59,420 bases of DNA, from assembly GCA_964469645.1 (NCBI GenBank), contig CAYXZV010000005.1, positions 1 to 59,420 on the forward strand, in the 5' to 3' direction. The stretch's first letter is position 1; each line of letters starts with the position of its first letter. This document shows positions 10,573 through 55,830 of this stretch, piece by piece. Source of the stretch: an uncultured Methanosarcinales archaeon. Lineage in GTDB: Archaea > Nanobdellota > Nanobdellia > Woesearchaeales > GW2011-AR4. Both the position numbers and the translations under genes were made by a program. The notes below the pieces were generated by a model. The model ran no database searches and was not told the DNA's origin. It was given only the letters and a program-made list of their open reading frames with translations.

Positions 10573-11688
10573 CTATTTTTGGACTATGTCAAGTATTACT
10601 GGTGGTCTGTTGACATTCTCTATAGATATTGTAAATTCTTGGCTTGTTGTATCAACACCGTCTGAAACCGTAACAGTAACTGGGTGCTTGCCAGTATCAT
10701 CATAAGTTGTTTCCCATGTAAACACATTTCCATCCTGCACAAACCTACTGTCATCAATTGAATAGCTTATCTCATCACCATCTTCATCCCATGCTTCCAG
10801 CTCAATAACGACAGTGTCTGTTTCACTTGCTTCTATGTCACCAACCTCGCTAAGTATAGGTTTCCTGTTTACATTACCCACAGTAACGCTCCATATCTTC
10901 TCTGTATCAAACAATCCGTCAGTGACAGTAACTTTTACCGTGTGTGACCCAGAATCATCATAGGTTGTTTGATATTCAACAGAATCATCATTGCCGATAT
11001 CTGTACCATCTAATTTCCATGCATACCTTAAAACATCATCATTCAGGTCAGAAGATACAACACTGAATGCTAATGTGTCAGTTTCCTGGACTTCGATAGC
11101 TGTTTCTTCCGGCCTAAAACTTTCAAGTACAGGAGCTTCTTCTTTCCTGTTTACAATCATCAAAACTTCTTTGGTTGCTGTCAGTAAGCCGTCGCTTGCA
11201 GTTACAGTAACTGTATATTCACCAGCATCTCCATAAGTTGTCTGCCATTCTCCATTGTCATCCAATGGGCTTGTGAACGTAAAATCTAGCACATCCTGGT
11301 CAGGATCTTCTGCCTGAGGAACCAGGCTTACAAGTTCTGTTTCTTCCACAATAAGCACAGTTGCATCTTCAGGAATTACTACTCCTTCTTCCTCCTCTTC
11401 AATAATAATGTCTACTTCCTCTGTTATCACTTCTACCTCTATGTCTACGTCTTCATCAATTTCTTCTGCTTCTTCCATCTCATCTTCTACTTCTGTAAAA
11501 TCTTCCTCTTCAAAAAGTTCTTCATCAATTAGTTCAACATCTATCTCTTCAGCTTCCACTAAATCACCCTCTTCAGAATCGTTTTCTTGCTGAGACTGCT
11601 TTATGTAAAGAGTATTGTAAACATCACAGGCACTAATAAAGAATATAGAGAAAATCACCAATACAATCAAAATTTCCTTTTTCATCAT
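10573..11688 (-). CDS. Putative lipoprotein with acidic linker and Ig-like/cadherin repeats
   Basis: Signal with ISAC lipobox, E/D-rich stretch, GEWQTTYGDAGEY shared with the neighbouring gene. Confidence 0.8.
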   Translation of the reverse strand: MMKKEILIVLVIFSIFFISACDVYNTLYIKQSQQENDSEEGDLVEAEEIDVELIDEELFEEEDFTEVEDEMEEAEEIDEDVDIEVEVITEEVDIIIEEEEEGVVIPEDATVLIVEETELVSLVPQAEDPDQDVLDFTFTSPLDDNGEWQTTYGDAGEYTVTVTASDGLLTATKEVLMIVNRKEEAPVLESFRPEETAIEVQETDTLAFSVVSSDLNDDVLRYAWKLDGTDIGNDDSVEYQTTYDDSGSHTVKVTVTDGLFDTEKIWSVTVGNVNRKPILSEVGDIEASETDTVVIELEAWDEDGDEISYSIDDSRFVQDGNVFTWETTYDDTGKHPVTVTVSDGVDTTSQEFTISIENVNRPPVILDIVQK

Positions 11689-11821
11689 ACGCCTCTTTAT
11701 TATTTGTAATTATTCTAAAATAACAACTTATATTTAAACTTTTTGGGTAGTGAAAAATTGTTTGGAAGAAACCTTTATTTTTTTATTACTGTTTTTCAAG
11801 AACATTAGTTAAAATTGTGAA

Positions 11822-11908
11822 TGGGCCTGCCAGGATTTGAACCTGGGACCAATCGATTTCCAGCATAGCTATCAGTCGATCATTCTAACCAGACTGAACT
11901 ACAGGCCC
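11822..11908 (-). tRNA. tRNA-Ile(GAU) with 12-nt intron at 37/38 (11858-11869)
   Basis: Acceptor GGGCCUG/CAGGCCC; anticodon arm AUCGA-CUGAUA[intron]A-UCGAU; 87 nt = 75 + 12. Confidence 0.9.
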
Positions 11909-11937: not shown

Positions 11938-12073
11938 CGCCCTCGACCAGACTCGAACTGGTGATCTTTCCCAACTTAAGAAAATTAATTCTTAAACTTA
12001 TGGTGTCTAACTTTGCAGGTAACAGCTTCGTAGTCTCTGGACTCATACGCTTTACCTACTAAGCTACGAGGGC
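11938..12073 (-). tRNA. tRNA-Asn(GUU) with three introns (30/31, 37/38, 43/44)
   Basis: Removing 12027-12043, 12005-12019 and 11968-11998 gives a 73-nt cloverleaf with arm UAUGG-CUGUUAA-CCAUA and G73; each intron has a BHB-like fold. Confidence 0.88.
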
Positions 12074-12098: not shown

Positions 12099-12169
12099 TT
12101 TAAATATGTTTCGGCATTGTGCGCACCCGCACACCAGTGTGCGGTACTACGTACCGCACGTCCCGAGAC
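12099..12169 (+). repeat. Dispersed palindromic element, copy A
   Basis: TTTAAA, 24-nt core GCGCACCCGCACACCAGTGTGCGG, hairpin, CCCGAGAC end. Confidence 0.75.
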
Positions 12170-12257
12170 TAGACAATTAATTCATAAATTTTTTTATTAT
12201 TCAAAACACAGAATAACTGATAAAAATAGAAAAAAAAATAAAAAAAACAATAAGAAA

Positions 12258-12503
12258 CTATCTTCTCTTCTTCCTTCTTCCGCCTCTGACCATCTTAGCC
12301 ATTGAGACATCGCCTTTCTTATCTATAAAGTATAGATATCCAGACTTTTTCTTAACTCCTACTTTAGCAACAACTTGTATTTTGCTTTTTCCTCTTTTCT
12401 TGCCGCGAGCCATTTTAGCTCTTGAAACGTTACCTTTTTTATCCAAGAAATATAGGTAACCTTTTTCTCTTTTTACTCCAACTTTTGCAACTTTTTGTGC
12501 CAT
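12258..12503 (-). CDS. Small basic protein made of two tandem ~35-aa repeats
   Basis: VAKVGVKxxxGYLYFxDKKGxVSxAKMxRG occurs twice. Confidence 0.85.
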   Translation of the reverse strand: MAQKVAKVGVKREKGYLYFLDKKGNVSRAKMARGKKRGKSKIQVVAKVGVKKKSGYLYFIDKKGDVSMAKMVRGGRRKKRR

Positions 12504-12612
12504 TACAACATCTCCTCCTATTTTTTTAGTTTATTAGACGAACCACCCGTCTTATGTTTTAATTTTTGCACGCTACCTTCTATTTAAAGGTTTCGTTTTT
12601 CCGACGGTGAAA

Positions 12613-18978: not shown

Positions 18979-19006
18979 CTAAAATCTTCTCTGTGGAGTT
19001 AAAGTT

Positions 19007-19073
19007 GTCTCGGGGTATCGAAGATACCCCCATACGCTAGTGTGCAGGCATGCACAAAAACGCATAGTTTAAA
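19007..19073 (-). repeat. Dispersed palindromic element, copy C (abuts the ftsZ promoter)
   Basis: Reverse strand: TTTAAA, core GCATGCCTGCACACTAGCGTATGG, GGGGTATC-TTC-GATACCCC hairpin, CCCGAGAC. Confidence 0.75.
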
Positions 19074-19118
19074 TATAAGTATGGGTCATTATTAAAATTA
19101 TCATTCAAGAGGGGTAAG

Positions 19119-21753: not shown

Positions 21754-22569
21754 ATGGCATCACAAACAGTCGAATCATTAGTACCTGGAGGAAAGGCAAC
21801 TGCAGCGCCTCCGCTAGGGCCTGCTTTAGGACCGTTAGGGGTCAATATAGGCCAGGTAGTTGCAGATATAAACAAAAAAACTTCTGCTTTTAATGGTATG
21901 CAGGTTCCTGTCAAAGTTATCGTAGATGTGGATACAAAGGAATTTGAGATTGATGTCGGAACACCGCCTGCTTCTTCATTAGTTTTAAAGGAAGCCGGAA
22001 TAGAAAAAGGTTCTGGAAACCCAAAAACAGACAAGGTTGCTGATATTCTTATTGAACAGATAATCAAGGTTGCAAAGATGAAAGAAAACAATCTTTTAGG
22101 TAAGACTTTGAAAGAAAAAGTAAAGGAGATTATCGGAACTTGCAACTCAATGGGTATTTTGGTGGAAGGAAAGCCGGCAGTTGAAACCATAAAGGACGTT
22201 AATGAAGGCAAATTCGATAAGGAAATAAAAGAAGAAAAGACAGAACTTTCTGCAGAAGAGAAAGCTAAATTGGAAGAAAAGAAAAAGAAACTTGCTGAAG
22301 AGATGGAGAAAAGACGTGCAGAATTCGAAAAAACCGCTAAAGAGATCATTGATTCAATGGCTGGCAAGGAAAGAGGAGAGATTAAGGCTAAATTATCAGA
22401 AGCTGATATTCCAGATGCAATAATCAAGGAATTATTGCCAGTTGAAGGAGAAGCAGCTGTTCCAGGAGCAGAAGGCGCAGCACCAGTTGAAGGAGCACCG
22501 GCTGAAGGCGCAGCACCAGAAGCTAAAGCAGAAGAAAAGAAAGAAGAGCCAAAAGAGAAGAAGAAATAA
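21754..22569 (+). CDS. rpl11: 50S ribosomal protein L11 with long C-terminal extension
   Basis: GGKATAAPPLGPALGP, PPASSL, GTCNSMG. Confidence 0.96.
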   Translation: MASQTVESLVPGGKATAAPPLGPALGPLGVNIGQVVADINKKTSAFNGMQVPVKVIVDVDTKEFEIDVGTPPASSLVLKEAGIEKGSGNPKTDKVADILIEQIIKVAKMKENNLLGKTLKEKVKEIIGTCNSMGILVEGKPAVETIKDVNEGKFDKEIKEEKTELSAEEKAKLEEKKKKLAEEMEKRRAEFEKTAKEIIDSMAGKERGEIKAKLSEADIPDAIIKELLPVEGEAAVPGAEGAAPVEGAPAEGAAPEAKAEEKKEEPKEKKK

Positions 22570-23505: not shown

Positions 23506-23610
23506 ATAAGTATATAAATAAGTATAAATATAAGTATCTATTTAAATAAAATACCAGCTAAAATCGTAATGTTTAAATATAAGTATCTAAATAAGAATAA
23601 AAATAAGTAT
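23506..23610 (+). repeat. Two triplets of ATAAGTAT direct repeats with 12-bp period
   Basis: Copies at 23506, 23518, 23530 and 23579, 23591 (ATAAGAAT), 23603. Confidence 0.85.
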
Positions 23611-23640
23611 ATATACCTTAATTCCATATGAACTCCAGAG

Positions 23641-23668
23641 TCAAAAGCCAACTTTCGTTGGCTTTTGA
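23641..23668. promoter_or_regulatory. Perfect 12-bp hairpin upstream of the AbrB-like gene
   Basis: TCAAAAGCCAAC-TTTC-GTTGGCTTTTGA. Confidence 0.75.
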
Positions 23669-23692
23669 TTTATACTCTAATAGGTCCTTAAT

Positions 23693-23860
23693 ATGCCAAC
23701 AGAATTCAAAAGAAAACTCTACAGAAGAGGTTCTAGCTTTGAAACAACTATTCCTATGCCTTTGCTTTTTGCTTTAGACAAGAAAAAGAAGTACAATGTA
23801 GTCTTTGCTTTTGATGCTGATGCCAATAAATGGTATGTTAAATTTGAAGAACGAAAATGA
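23693..23860 (+). CDS. AbrB/MazE-like swapped-hairpin small DNA-binding protein (55 aa; absent from the ORF track)
   Basis: MPTEFKRKLYRRGSSFETTIPMPLL matches the RK-x3-G-x-S-x3-TIP pattern. Confidence 0.75.
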   Translation: MPTEFKRKLYRRGSSFETTIPMPLLFALDKKKKYNVVFAFDADANKWYVKFEERK

Positions 23861-23869
23861 GGTGGAAAC

Positions 23870-24166
23870 ATGTATAGATTTACGAAGTTTTTGGGCTCGT
23901 TAGAGCATTATGAGTTAGTTAAATTGAAGAAAGGGCTGGAAAAAGGAACAATAGATTTTGAAAAAGAGATACAGGACCGTATAAAAGAGCATGAAAAAAG
24001 ACATTCGAAATTCTGCGCAACATGCTCAAATACATTAGACCACTATAATCCAAATAATTACACGATTATATTCGGCCCTGAAGATTTCAGGAAAAAAGCC
24101 TCCTTTTGCGGATTGGATTGCCTGGAATATTTTATGATAAATATGAAACAAATGAAAAAAGTGTAG
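23870..24166 (+). CDS. Small Cys4 (TRASH-like) metal-binding protein
   Basis: CATC...FCGLDC; SD GAGGTG upstream. Confidence 0.75.
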   Translation: MYRFTKFLGSLEHYELVKLKKGLEKGTIDFEKEIQDRIKEHEKRHSKFCATCSNTLDHYNPNNYTIIFGPEDFRKKASFCGLDCLEYFMINMKQMKKV

Positions 24167-24175
24167 GTGATAAAA

Positions 24176-24295
24176 ATGCAGAAAAAATTGAATAATTTTT
24201 CAGAGAATAAAAACCTAAGTTATGCAAAATACATAGAAGAGATTACATTCGAGCAATTAAAGAAAATTTCTGTTGTTAATGATTATGTAAATTAA
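24176..24295 (+). CDS. 39-aa micro-ORF
   Basis: SD AGGTGA 5 nt upstream; operon position. Confidence 0.5.
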   Translation: MQKKLNNFSENKNLSYAKYIEEITFEQLKKISVVNDYVN

Positions 24296-24310
24296 AAAAA
24301 GGTGGTGTAA

Positions 24311-24415
24311 ATGGAAATAAATGAAATATGTGAAATAACCGGAAAGACACGGGATGAAATAGAAAAAATGTTGGAGAAGGATGATGTCATAGAGCTTAAA
24401 TTGACGGAAAAATAG
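24311..24415 (+). CDS. 34-aa micro-ORF (MEINEICEITGKTRDEIEKML...)
   Basis: SD AGGTGG upstream; helix-turn-helix-like sequence. Confidence 0.55.
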   Translation: MEINEICEITGKTRDEIEKMLEKDDVIELKLTEK

Positions 24416-24436: not shown

Positions 24437-27064
24437 ATGCATGATGAGCCTATTGATGAAATTTTTAAGGCATTGAACTCAAAAAAAGAGGGCCTGACAG
24501 AGAAAGAAGCAGAGTTAAGATTAAAAAAATACGGCTATAACGAAATAAAAGAAGAAAAGAGGATTTCTCCAATAAAAATTTTCCTCCAACAATTTAATTC
24601 TGCCGTTGTATATATCCTGATAGCTGCCTTAGTTATTTCTATATTTATCGGAGAACAGATAGATGCAGTTGTTATAGGGATAATACTGATCCTGAATGCA
24701 TTATTCGGTTTTTATCAGGAATATCGGGCAGAAAAATCAATAGAAGCGCTCAAAAAATTAGCAAGCTTAAAAGCTACTGTTCTAAGGGATGGAAAAGAAA
24801 AAGAGATAGATGCAAAACTCTTAGTCCAAGGAGATATAATTGTATTGGCAGAAGGGGACAAGATCCCGGCTGATTCAAGGATATTTGAATTGGCCAATCT
24901 ACAGACTCTGGAAGCTGCATTGACAGGAGAAAGCACCCCGGTTAAAAAAGAGCTTAAAGTTTTAGCAGAAAAAACACCTTTGGCAGATAGGATCAATATG
25001 ACATTTTCCGGGACCGTTATAACCTGCGGTAAAGGAAGAGCAGTTGTTACAGGAACCGGAATGAAATCCGAAATAGGAAAAATAGCAAAACTAATGCAGG
25101 AAACAGAAGAGGAAAAAACACCTCTGCAAAAAAAATTGGATCAGCTTGGAAAATTGCTCGGAGCTTTGACAATAGTCATTTCCATAATTGTCTTTTTGGG
25201 GGGAATTTTTAAAGGTGGTGATTTAATAGAATTTTTTATCATAGCCGTAGCTCTTGCTGTTGCTGCCATTCCCGAAGGATTGCCTGCAGTAGTTACAATC
25301 GGATTGTCCATAGGCTCCCAGAAGATGGTTAAAAGGAACGCTTTGATCCGTAAGCTGCCTTCAGTCGAGACTCTCGGTTCAACAACTGTTATCTGTTCAG
25401 ATAAGACAGGAACCCTGACAAAAAATGAAATGACTGTCAAGAAAATATACACTTGTAACAAGATCATTGATGTTACAGGTTCCGGTTACGAGAAAAAAGG
25501 AGGATTTCTGTTCAATAATAAAAAAATCAGCACCAAAGAGATTGAATTATTATTAAAAATAGGTACATTAAACAACGATGCTTCTTTGAATGATGGTAAT
25601 GTTATTGGAGACCCTACCGAAGCTTCCTTGATTGTTTCTGCTGCAAAAGCCGGCCTGAAAAAAGAAGAGCTGGAAAAAAAGCATAAGAGGATCGATGAGA
25701 TACCTTTCACTTCAGAAAGAAAAATAATGACTACAATACATGATTTCAATAGCGAAAAACTTGCTTTTGTAAAAGGAGCGCCTGAAGTCGTGCTTAAGCT
25801 TTGCAAGTCCGTTTATGAAAACGGCAAAATAAAGAAATTGACAGAAGCAAAGAGAAAAGAGATTCTGCAGATAAACCAACAATTTGCTAATAGTGCTTTA
25901 AGAGTCTTAGGTTTTGCTTTCAAGACAGTCATGAATAAGGACAGGACTGAAAAAAACCTTACTTTTGTCGGTTTGCAGGGAATGATTGACCCTCCAAGAG
26001 AAGAGATCAAGGGAGCAATAAGTAAATGCAGGAGAGCAGGAATAAATGTCATTATGATAACAGGTGATCATGAAATAACAGCCAGAGCCATAGGAAAAGA
26101 GATTGGATTAGAAGGAAAAAGCTTGACCGGGCAGCAGCTGGAAAAAATCTCCAATTTTGATAAAATCGTTGAGGATATAGCAATATATGCTCGTGTCAAT
26201 CCTGAGCACAAGATAAAAATCGTTGATGCTTTAAAGAAAAAAGGGCATATTGTTGCGATGACCGGAGACGGAGTAAATGACGCACCAGCATTAAAGAAAG
26301 CAGATATTGGAGTAGGGATGGGCATTACAGGCACTGATGTTGCTAAAGAATCTTCTGATATGATCCTAACAGATGATAATTTTGCATCTATAGTGAATGC
26401 AGTTGAAGAAGGTCGTGGAATATATGGCAATATAAAGAAGTTTGTTGAATATCTGCTGTCCTCAAATTTAGGAGAGATTTTGACATTATTCACCGCCATA
26501 ATGATCGGTTTACCTTTACCTTTGATTGCCATAATGATCCTATGGATAAACTTAGTTACTGATGGGTTGCCGGCACTAGCTTTAAGCGTTGATCCTTCTG
26601 ATCCTAACATAATGGAGCAAAAACCGAGGAATCCAAAAGAAAAGATTATCTCAAATCCTATTATAGTGAGGATGATTATTGTTGGAATCACTATGATGAT
26701 TGGAACACTTGCAATTTTCAAAATTTACAATCCAGAAGCAAATTTGATGTATGCGCAAACAATAGCGTTTTCCACATTGATGTTCTACCAGATGTTCAAT
26801 GTGTTGAACTGCCGCTCTGAATTCAATTCATTGTTCAAGATAGGGGTTTTTTCAAACATGAAGCTTTGGGGTGCAATATTAATCTCAGTATTGCTGCAGA
26901 TTTTAGTCATACACACACCATTAAGCATATTTTTCAAAACAGTACCTTTAACATTTATGGACTGGATCTATGTTGTTTTGGTTTCAAGCAGTGTGTTGAT
27001 AATAGTTGAGATCTATAAATTTGCAGTGGCTAAATTTAACCCTAATGTCTGTAAGACTGCATGA
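24437..27064 (+). CDS. P-type II (Ca2+-type) cation-transporting ATPase
   Basis: [30 protein letters not shown]. Confidence 0.96.
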
Positions 27065-54658: not shown

Positions 54659-54732
54659 TAGAATTAGTAGATTAACTCCTTTATATATCTCACGCGCAAA
54701 TGTCCAGTGCAGTATAAGCAATGTCCAGTGGT

Positions 54733-55830
54733 TCAAGGTAGCCATGAATTAGGATTCTTAAGTTTCTTAGGAAGGTAATCACTCATAACAAAATTTAACC
54801 CATGTTTAGACAACGCTTGTTGCTCTGCTCTTACTTTCATCTTTATCTGTTGCTGAATTGCATTCTGCCATTCCTTATAGTGCTTTATGAATGGATCATT
54901 CTTAAGAGCATCTTTGCCCCTCTTAATGTCTACTTCCTTCAAAGGATGTGTAGGTAATTTATAATCTACAATATCTTGGGGAGTGATTCCTATAAATTTT
55001 GCATTAGGCACACAAAAATATTGATTAATATGCGCAGCGTTTCCTGAGCCAACCTTAAGACTTCGATATATATTTGCGTACGCGTACATGTCACCATCTG
55101 CGAAAACATATACATCTAATTTCCTCTCATCACTTAATCTACGAATAAATCTACGTAAGGCTCTGGTAGGCACACCACCCATAGAAACTAAAATACAATT
55201 AGCCTTTTTCCAATAGTTATGTTTCACAAGCCTTTGAAACATACCTGCTGTCTCTATCGCTAAAATGAATTTAGCATTGGTTTCAAATTTCAGATGCTCA
55301 ACAGATGTAGGTATTGAATATGCACCGGAACCAAACTTAGTACAATCAATCTTTATCTGCTTCCCGGTATCAGGATCTTTGTCAACAACAATTAATTTTC
55401 CTGCAACTTCTCCACCTTTTTCTTCCGGAATAAAACCAAGCTGTTCGCGATTAACCATCATCATCGCTTCCAAGTCATCCATGACTGTATCAGATTCCGG
55501 CTGCTCCTTGAAGGCAGCTTCTGCCCAGTTCTTAGAGATATAGTACATCTCTCTCTTTGTTGTTATGTCCTCTTCTTTGATAATGCTTTTTGCATGCGCC
55601 ATCATGCGCAAAGTCTGCGCAAAAGTTTTAATAGTAGAAGCGGTCATAGTCCTTTCCTTCATCTTCCCCAACAATTCAAAAAAACCTTCTTTAGGATCAT
55701 ACTTTACATTAGTCAATGCACGAAGAGGCATCTTTAGCTCAGGAGCTTTTTTCTTTTTTATTCTGGAATAGACATTACTTGCTGTATCTTCTATTTCCTT
55801 TATCACTGAAGTGGATGACGTTTTTTTCAT
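54733..55830 (-). CDS. top6A: DNA topoisomerase VI subunit A
   Basis: TKREMYY (catalytic Tyr), AIET, GVP, DGD, EQQA. Confidence 0.96.
   Translation of the reverse strand: MKKTSSTSVIKEIEDTASNVYSRIKKKKAPELKMPLRALTNVKYDPKEGFFELLGKMKERTMTASTIKTFAQTLRMMAHAKSIIKEEDITTKREMYYISKNWAEAAFKEQPESDTVMDDLEAMMMVNREQLGFIPEEKGGEVAGKLIVVDKDPDTGKQIKIDCTKFGSGAYSIPTSVEHLKFETNAKFILAIETAGMFQRLVKHNYWKKANCILVSMGGVPTRALRRFIRRLSDERKLDVYVFADGDMYAYANIYRSLKVGSGNAAHINQYFCVPNAKFIGITPQDIVDYKLPTHPLKEVDIKRGKDALKNDPFIKHYKEWQNAIQQQIKMKVRAEQQALSKHGLNFVMSDYLPKKLKNPNSWLP

Follow-up and report, generated by a model that had tools for sequence, protein, structure and literature searches.

Phased direct repeats in the promoter of a Woesearchaeota operon and their probable reader, a 55-residue protein

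Why does the promoter of a small archaeal operon carry two sets of short direct repeats on a 12-bp period, and which protein reads them? This question is raised by positions 23506 to 24415 of contig CAYXZV010000005.1 (assembly GCA_964469645.1) from an uncultured member of the Woesearchaeota; we refer to the whole analysed stretch of 59,420 nucleotides as the window. The repeats lie upstream of a gene for a basic protein of only 55 amino acids (aa). The locus is best read as an operon, with its control region, that belongs to a so far undescribed family of very small DNA-binding proteins of archaea. We consider this interpretation fairly probable, and we have little doubt that the repeats form a cis-regulatory element that is both conserved and dedicated. 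Woesearchaeota, like other DPANN archaea, are uncultured; to our knowledge, almost nothing has been established about their gene regulation, and we know of no characterised regulator. Searching the literature, we found nothing relevant and no regulator-operator pair described for these organisms.

The distal array consists of three exact copies of ATAAGTAT on the forward strand (23506..23537; units at 23506, 23518 and 23530). The proximal array (23579..23610, forward strand) has the same 12-bp period, with ATAAGTAT at 23579, ATAAGAAT at 23591 and ATAAGTAT at 23603. An earlier first-pass annotation of this DNA had described the exact triplet as occurring twice. This holds for the first triplet, whereas the middle unit of the second has one mismatch, which gives five exact units and one near-exact unit. 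The distance of 73 bp that it reported between the triplets, counted from first unit to first unit, is correct. An archaeal TATA box, TTTAAATA, is found at 23573..23580 (forward strand), its promoter role being assigned from the archaeal consensus, and its last bases overlap the first proximal unit. Given the usual archaeal distance from TATA box to start, the proximal array would span the region from the TATA box to a predicted transcription start at about 23603. Bacterial promoter and terminator scans of the locus were uninformative.

The total number of units is not what makes this locus stand out. The whole window contains six exact ATAAGTA(T) copies, all on the forward strand, where 3.8 are expected. 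Five of them fall inside 105 bp at this locus and the sixth is at 19075, so that it is the clustering and phasing that are unusual. ATAAGTA is the sole 7-mer of the window that is seen three times at a 12-bp lag.

Using a scan of relatives with one genome per species, we found 236 stretches that encode a relative of the 55-aa protein and kept 80 Woesearchaeota/Nanoarchaeota loci. The 300 bp upstream of each 55-aa gene (22.7 kb together) contain 272 copies of ATAAGTA, compared with 77 in the other 1.16 Mb, both strands counted, which is an enrichment of about 180-fold per base. Distances within the arrays are 12 (61 pairs), 24 (68) and 36 bp (28), and none is 11 or 13 bp. In 778 kb of related DNA, all 165 pairs at a lag of 12, 24 or 36 bp fall in the first kilobase upstream of the 55-aa gene; elsewhere in this DNA only single units and no phased arrays occur. 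The G of the unit is invariant. The first-pass annotation had named synteny and repeat conservation as the check on its proposal, and on this check the ATAAGTA arrays proved to be conserved and gene-specific across the 80 loci.

The layout is conserved as well. A distal array, usually of three mostly exact units followed by a non-conserved spacer, is present in most of the loci. The proximal array usually has three to four units, of which the outer ones are exact and the inner ones degenerate; its first unit overlaps the TATA box across the relatives. The last unit begins 8-21 nt (mode 9) before the ATG in most loci and, given the usual archaeal TATA-to-start distance, would sit on the transcription start. 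In 36 non-duplicate loci with both arrays, we measured how far the first proximal unit lies from the last distal one. Most of these gaps fall into two classes, 48-52 bp (27 loci) and 58-60 bp (seven loci); one locus each has 39 and 82 bp, and gaps of 53-57 bp do not occur. Counted between their first units, the arrays are 73-76 bp or 82-87 bp apart. Since the gap classes differ by about 10 bp, both arrays keep to one face of the helix, which fits cooperation between the proteins bound at each. The earlier estimate of about seven helical turns agrees with this, the distal array being placed about seven or eight turns upstream.

Which protein reads the repeats can be approached through divergent members of the 55-aa family, which came out of an exhaustive search with a profile (100 clusters at 50% identity) and whose contigs were fetched. 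These genes also have repeats of 12-bp period between TATA box and ATG. The repeated words are ATGGCATA (three times) for P0213, CAATACATA (twice) with TAATACAA (twice) for P0214, TATAACATA (twice) for P0198, GTAAGGCAT (two to three times) for P0175, GTAAGTAAA (three times) for P0159, a GTTATAA-like triple for P0199 and ATAAGTA/ATAAGTT for P0151. The two-domain protein P0218 is preceded by AGTATAGCA in a four-unit 12-bp register. Proteins of the RKLY-RG-S-ETTIP type retain TAAGTA-like words, and proteins of the KLWKRS type have different words. Moreover, the arrays are kept with the 55-aa gene at loci that lack the gene for a 98-aa protein with four cysteines (Cys98), the ATPase gene or the gene for the D-aminoacyl-tRNA deacylase DTD2. 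The repeat word changes with the protein subfamily at constant geometry, and this covariation is our main reason for naming the family protein as the binder.

We infer that the 55-aa protein probably binds the ATAAGTA repeats. The repeats are specific to the gene's own promoter, overlap its core promoter, are conserved across species and covary with the protein, a combination that points to an autoregulated operator. The first-pass annotation had proposed an autoregulated module. A conserved, gene-specific repeat control region does precede an operon led by a small basic protein, and, judged from the sequences, this operon is very probably autoregulated.

Some loci show variations of their own in the upstream region. 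In one clade (L055, which is the complete chromosome OY970338.1, L056, L059, L067 and L051) the upstream regions are long and AT-rich, with up to ten ATAAGTA copies that reach about 930 bp upstream. The variant units ACTAGTAC/ATTAGTAC near the TATA box of this clade accompany a change from F to I at residue 5 of the 55-aa protein. Among the divergent members, only P0219 (L085) has repeats outside the 12-bp register: three exact direct copies of CCAAAATATGCAGGTT with a 16-bp period, about 150 bp upstream of its gene.

The 55-aa protein is encoded at 23693..23860 on the forward strand and is a putative repeat-binding autoregulator of an undescribed family. We found 697 homologues (E <= 0.01) among 90%-identity clusters, and the profile search gave about 100 clusters at 50% identity. 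The best 120 of the 697 homologues are 78-94% identical, are all annotated as hypothetical and come from Woesearchaeota/Nanoarchaeota. In an alignment of 28 sequences, 25 of the 55 residues are invariant. With 15 K/R and 9 D/E residues, counted from the sequence, the protein is basic. Fused two-domain members of the family exist, as expected if a dimer is the working unit.

An AlphaFold2 monomer model of the protein (mean predicted local distance difference test, pLDDT, of 87) has strands at residues 5-12 and 15-17, a helix at 22-26 and strands at 34-41 and 46-53. This β-β-α-β-β order and the domain size of about 50 aa match the half-barrel of AbrB, MazE and SpoVT. In HHalign comparisons, LYRRGSSFETTIPMPLL was aligned in register on the G-x-x-x-x-[VT]-[IL]-P-x-x-[LI] loop-helix segment of AbrB/MazE, so that the G-x-S-x-x-T-I-P-x-x-L segment of the 55-aa protein falls on their DNA-binding loop. 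The probability was 70% with a six-sequence template and 38% (score 21.2) with five PDB-verified AbrB/Abh/SpoVT/MazE sequences, while 30 column-shuffled or reversed controls scored at most 13.5. A natural two-domain fusion, P0121, modelled from its single sequence without alignment, reached a pLDDT of 38. A bridge to the PF04014 profile by way of P0199, the most MazE-like member, failed, as P0199 is a singleton.

In the mechanism that we propose, the 55-aa protein, probably as AbrB/MazE-like dimers, would polymerise side by side on the ATAAGTA(T) direct repeats of the 12-bp lattice. A filled proximal row, extending from the TATA box through the start, would exclude TATA-binding protein (TBP), transcription factor B (TFB) and RNA polymerase and thereby repress the operon (negative autoregulation). 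That the effect of binding is repression is only slightly favoured by the position of the array. The distal row of three perfect units would be a high-affinity anchor and would probably assist the proximal row through bridging or looping, which would sharpen the response. The output would be the level of the regulator, of the Cys4 protein Cys98 and, usually, of a Ca-type pump; most likely, the module sets the level of a cation pump. Cys98 is a candidate partner, or a candidate sensor of a presumed physiological signal. In addition, the lineage of the window has acquired a leader of about 80 nt with a stable hairpin and a Shine-Dalgarno (SD) sequence, as well as two micro-genes.

Several observations weigh against the 55-aa protein as an AbrB-like repressor of its own repeats. 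Pfam and NCBIfam gave no match for it (Pfam at E <= 1) and no MraZ profile. The curated threshold of the SpoVT-AbrB profile (PF04014) was not reached, and only one of 25 family members touches it (E = 0.046). PDB profile searches with two alignments returned no AbrB or MazE and only spurious Kelch-like matches. Foldseek with the monomer model gave no significant match and no AbrB/MazE in the PDB (best E = 0.76), and in BFVD a single SpoVT-AbrB match that was not significant (E = 0.92). A symmetric dimer on direct repeats would be unusual, given that the unit is partly palindromic (ATA-AG-TAT) and that 12 bp differs from the helical repeat. A 12-bp array is absent in two of nine single-domain divergent members, L094 having none and L085 the 16-bp repeat. 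The first proximal unit coincides with a promoter element of the form TATA-nnAGT, so part of its signal may be basal promoter. Furthermore, the loci come from related species, and the conservation and gap counts are therefore not independent events. The runs that contain the locus are DNA metagenomes, and two RNA runs from the same sample shared no sampled words with it, so that the start of transcription and the direction of regulation are predictions.

The label "AbrB-like" given by the first-pass annotation is thus suggestive only: the order of the secondary structure elements and the HHalign scores above controls favour it, whereas Pfam, PDB profile and Foldseek searches gave no significant match. 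The balance tips slightly towards an AbrB/MazE-like fold, which is unproven.

The strongest alternative is that the repeats are the operator of another factor, either Cys98 or an unlinked regulator, and that the 55-aa protein is an accessory or chaperone of the ATPase/Cys98 pair. The lack of a significant match between the 55-aa protein and any DNA-binding family or fold would agree with such a role, as would the tight linkage of its gene to those of the ATPase (54 of 80 loci) and Cys98 (49 of 80). However, the arrays stay with the 55-aa gene where Cys98 and/or the ATPase are missing. Moreover, divergent members whose neighbouring genes are unrelated are preceded by 12-bp arrays of other words, a pattern that would be difficult to account for if the repeats were not read by the family protein. 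The 55-aa protein is also basic, and its AbrB/MazE-type alignment scores above the controls. We regard an operator of another factor as unlikely.

A second alternative assigns the 55-aa protein a much wider role, namely that of a broad promoter-proximal factor which reads AAGT or AGT after the TATA box, including that of ftsZ, and which has many copies of its site in its own promoter. Among the surviving readings, this one comes closest to the idea of a division-gene regulator. The first-pass annotation had noticed that the 16-mer GTTTAAATATAAGTAT, a TATA box with one unit, is common to 23571 and 19067, and we can confirm this: the exact copy at 19067..19082 (forward strand) is upstream of a true FtsZ gene. 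Of 52 distinct ftsZ promoters, 33 have AGT at +3..+5 behind the TATA box, as do 10 of 46 other promoters with a TFB-recognition element (BRE) and TATA box; it is found in none of 88 TATA-like words without BRE context. The promoters considered are those of ftsZ in the window (19068-19082) and in L099-L178, and other promoters of the window and of L001-L080. The extreme conservation of the protein and the 236 scanned genome stretches that encode a relative would also suit a broad factor.

However, outside its own promoter only single units and never arrays are found. The ftsZ promoter of the window has one unit and no array, and ftsZ lies 4.4 kb from the 55-aa gene in a separate transcription unit; a link to the division-gene cluster is missing. 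None of the 52 ftsZ promoters of relatives has a repeat array. Just five of them have TAAGTA after the TATA box, most others having GTAGTT, TTAGTT, TAAGTG or similar, and AGT could equally be read by TBP or TFB. The sequences suggest that TATA-nnAGT may be a general promoter element of these Woesearchaeota, either a basal element or the site of a further factor. As it is spread over promoters, the shared 16-mer is best explained as this general element, which coincides with the first operator unit. We consider a broad factor improbable, and any role of the 55-aa protein at ftsZ would come as a surprise.

The first-pass annotation had further suggested a functional analogue of MraZ that controls division genes. 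With a single unit at ftsZ, TAAGTA in so few of the relatives and no array in any of their ftsZ promoters, this suggestion is not supported. Identity with MraZ was considered as well and rejected; the 55-aa protein consists of one domain and matches no MraZ profile, and its neighbours are DTD2, Cys98, a P2A-type ATPase and ELP3 and not a division cluster. A bolder proposal would be an archaeal family of mini-regulators with a protein-to-operator code, in which each subfamily reads a word of 7-9 bp on a 12-bp lattice from TATA box to start and the Woesearchaeota member possibly also reads TATA-nnAGT, including that of ftsZ, as a broad regulator. We see this as a long shot. Just upstream of the ftsZ TATA box, at 18985-19060, the window has the GC-rich hairpins GGGGTATCGAAGATACCCCC and GTGTGCAGGCATGCACA in AT-rich DNA.

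The repeats might also be AT-rich promoter sequence, that is, tandem TATA- or UP-like strength elements with no dedicated binder. The unit AAATAAGTA indeed resembles half a TATA box together with the general nnAGT element, and at L013, L015, L039 and L048 the distal array, too, begins with a full TATA box. Such sequence would hardly account for an enrichment of about 180-fold that is exclusive to one promoter, for the invariant G or for the strict 12-bp register. Only three of about 30 TATA words of the window are followed by TAAGT, and divergent members use words that are not TATA-like (ATGGCATA, GTAAGGCAT) at the same period. We consider this explanation very improbable. The first-pass annotation had itself stated that generic TATA-flanking sequence would speak against its proposal; this objection falls for the arrays and partly stands for the single unit adjacent to the TATA box.

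A toxin-antitoxin-like module, in which the 55-aa protein would be an AbrB/MazE-type antitoxin and Cys98 the toxin under repeat autoregulation, matches the layout, as a small AbrB-like gene comes first, a gene of about 100 aa follows and the promoter contains a repeat operator. It is the least probable reading of all and, like any defence identity, was rejected. Across the group, the genes keep a syntenic, vertically conserved place between those for DTD2 and ELP3; 31 of 80 loci have no Cys98, and conservation of the 55-aa protein is extreme. PADLOC and PHROGs gave no match, and Cys98 is like no known toxin.

We now turn to the genes that the repeat-bearing promoter would control. The first-pass annotation had listed four small open reading frames (ORFs) of 55, 98, 39 and 34 aa linked by SD sequences. 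All four are present, and three have a clear SD: GAGGTG for the ORF at 23870, AGGTGA for that at 24179 and AGGTGGTG for that at 24311. The 55-aa ORF has just AGGT, and the third ORF comprises 38 aa. The second gene, encoding Cys98, is located at 23870..24166. The third (24179..24295) encodes 38 aa from its ATG, or 42 aa from a GTG at 24167, and the fourth (24311..24415) encodes 34 aa with the C-terminus VIELKLTEK. They are followed by the usual last gene of the operon, which encodes a P-type ATPase of type IIA (PMR1/SERCA-like, Ca-type) at 24437..27064; all of these genes are on the forward strand. In six close relatives, the 38- and 34-aa ORFs are each kept as an ORF, with a recognisable SD in four of six loci for each, sometimes in changed order or alone. 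This indicates that they are real micro-genes of this subclade.

Cys98 is helical in its N-terminal half and has a Cys4 motif towards the C-terminus. Its cysteines C49, C52, C80 and C84 are invariant (spacing C-x2-C-x27-C-x3-C), and the protein contains KKASFCGLDCLEYF and a KKASFCGLDC motif. It had been labelled TRASH-like, for which we looked for a C-x2-C-x19-22-C-x3-C motif together with a TRASH or YHS profile match. The x27 spacing is outside this range and none of 21 Cys98 homologues matched the TRASH or YHS profiles at E <= 1, so the label is not confirmed. Cys98 is weakly DUF7576-like, as 20 of the 21 homologues match this family below the cut-off (best E = 6.4e-5).

The ATPase scores 813.8 bits against TIGR01522 (cut-off 798.3) and 758.9 bits against TIGR01116 (cut-off 703.4), and its DKTGT and PEGLP motifs are intact. 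By sequence, it is a P2A pump of the Ca/PMR1/SERCA type and not a heavy-metal P1B pump. A metal-responsive circuit, as had been proposed, does not agree with this pump type, and several species have no pump and nevertheless have the repeats and the 55-aa gene.

In the window, the divergent upstream gene encodes DTD2 and the gene 3' of the ATPase encodes ELP3. Among the loci, Cys98 follows the 55-aa gene in 49, the ATPase is found downstream in 54, directly after the 55-aa gene in about 14 of these, and the DTD2 gene is upstream and divergent in 46. At L013, L031 and L048, the block has no ATPase and ELP3 follows directly, so that here the pump has been lost from a conserved block while regulator and repeats stayed.

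Several other features of the gene neighbourhoods may be mentioned. At the distant loci L047, L060 and L078, the 55-aa gene is directly followed by genes for Big_9/PKD or cadherin-like proteins. The third promoter of the window with TATA and TAAGT, at 11724-11739 (reverse strand), drives a PKD/Big_9 surface protein (10573-11688, reverse strand), and this parallel may be a coincidence. L019 and L037, as well as L018 and L066, are pairs of 55-aa gene copies on different contigs of the same metagenome-assembled genome and may be paralogues or strain mixtures. At L091-L093, the gene of the divergent member P0204 lies on GC-rich contigs and adjoins a D5_N/DUF5906 primase-helicase gene; it is probably part of a virus or a mobile element.

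Between the proximal array and the 55-aa gene, the window has a lineage-specific leader of about 80 nt (23611..23692, forward strand) with a hairpin and the weak SD-like AGGT at 23682-23685. The perfect 12-bp hairpin described by the first-pass annotation is present at 23641-23668, with a 4-nt loop (TCAAAAGCCAAC TTTC GTTGGCTTTTGA), and is one of two such hairpins in the 59 kb. The leader folds with -23.4 kcal/mol (z = -5.3 compared with shuffles), and a search of Rfam with leader and promoter gave no match. The hairpin may act in stability or attenuation, or it may be an inserted palindromic element. Most relatives have no leader, their last unit lying 8-21 nt before the ATG. Leaders of more than 60 nt occur only in the window and at L002, L004, L005, L062, L079 and L098, and the hairpin sequences differ; at L004, a hairpin of other sequence is found at the matching position. 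At these six loci, 60-276 nt separate the proximal array from the ATG and contain strong, unrelated hairpins in the different lineages, which looks like repeated capture of palindromic elements.

How does the proposed module compare with known systems? The bacterial regulator MraZ, which consists of tandem AbrB-like UPF0040 domains, is, like the 55-aa protein as we read it, a small β-rich binder that is encoded first in its operon and autoregulates through direct repeats in its own promoter. Its tandem domains are paralleled by the fused two-domain versions in the 55-aa family. MraZ reads TGGGN repeats spaced by about 10 bp, in the operon of the division/cell-wall cluster, whereas here the period is 12 bp, there are two arrays of the word ATAAGTA, and the operon contains a Cys4 protein and a Ca-type pump. 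The analogy holds only for the style of autoregulation. AbrB binds degenerate sites, while the repeat word and spacing are sharply defined here, and the 55-aa protein remains below every curated threshold.

In archaea, Ss-LrpB of Sulfolobus is an autoregulator that binds cooperatively to three regularly spaced boxes in its own control region and deforms the DNA. It is a helix-turn-helix protein of the Lrp family, and its 15-bp palindromic sites lie upstream of the promoter, separated by several turns of the helix. The present locus, in contrast, combines a 55-aa protein with direct repeats of 7-8 bp at a 12-bp period over the TATA-to-start region. The cop cluster of Sulfolobus, with the regulator CopT/CopR, the TRASH protein CopM and the P1B copper-type ATPase CopA, has the same gene order of regulator, small Cys-rich protein and P-type ATPase. 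It differs from the present operon, which has a P2A pump (PEGLP), a Cys4 protein without a TRASH/YHS match and an unrelated regulator. Repressors of the Omega, CopG, MetJ and Arc type are small dimers that polymerise cooperatively on short tandem promoter repeats, as proposed here. They have a ribbon-helix-helix fold and periods of 7-9 bp, whereas the 55-aa protein is predicted to be mostly β and its period is 12 bp. A small autoregulator on tandem repeats of its own promoter is a familiar kind of system; the protein family is undescribed. The strict 12-bp lattice, the two phased arrays and the natural specificity variants are distinctive.

What makes the locus valuable for the study of Woesearchaeota is that the sequence alone suffices to name a cis-element together with its probable reader. 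The natural "specificity swaps" in the divergent members make the idea of the reader directly testable in vitro. With 55 residues, 25 invariant positions and an exactly known target word, the protein is an attractive minimal system of DNA recognition. Moreover, the 38-, 34- and 55-aa genes are real, conserved genes that gene callers easily miss.

Further observations concern other parts of the window and of the related loci. A recurrent intergenic motif with repeated copies, either GTCCAGTG or GTCCACTAA followed by GCGACAGAGCC, is found at 54700-54735 and upstream of the distal array in L028-L030, L034 and L046. Rfam gave no match for L029, the only one of these loci searched. The motif may be part of a small RNA or of another regulator's site. 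Two unusually long tRNA genes, both on the reverse strand, probably contain introns: one at 11822-11908 (87 nt), for which ARAGORN named no anticodon, and one at 11938-12073 (136 nt), found only in a permissive Rfam search. A region of about 490 bp (12099-12590) has no ORF of at least 90 aa and lies between convergent BRE/TATA promoters (12099, forward strand; 12588, reverse strand). It has a GC-rich hairpin at 12139-12159 and no Rfam match, and may encode a non-coding RNA. Finally, the ribosomal protein L11 encoded at 21754-22569 has 271 aa; its L11 domains end near residue 137 and are followed by a long C-terminal extension of low complexity, rich in Lys, Glu and Ala.

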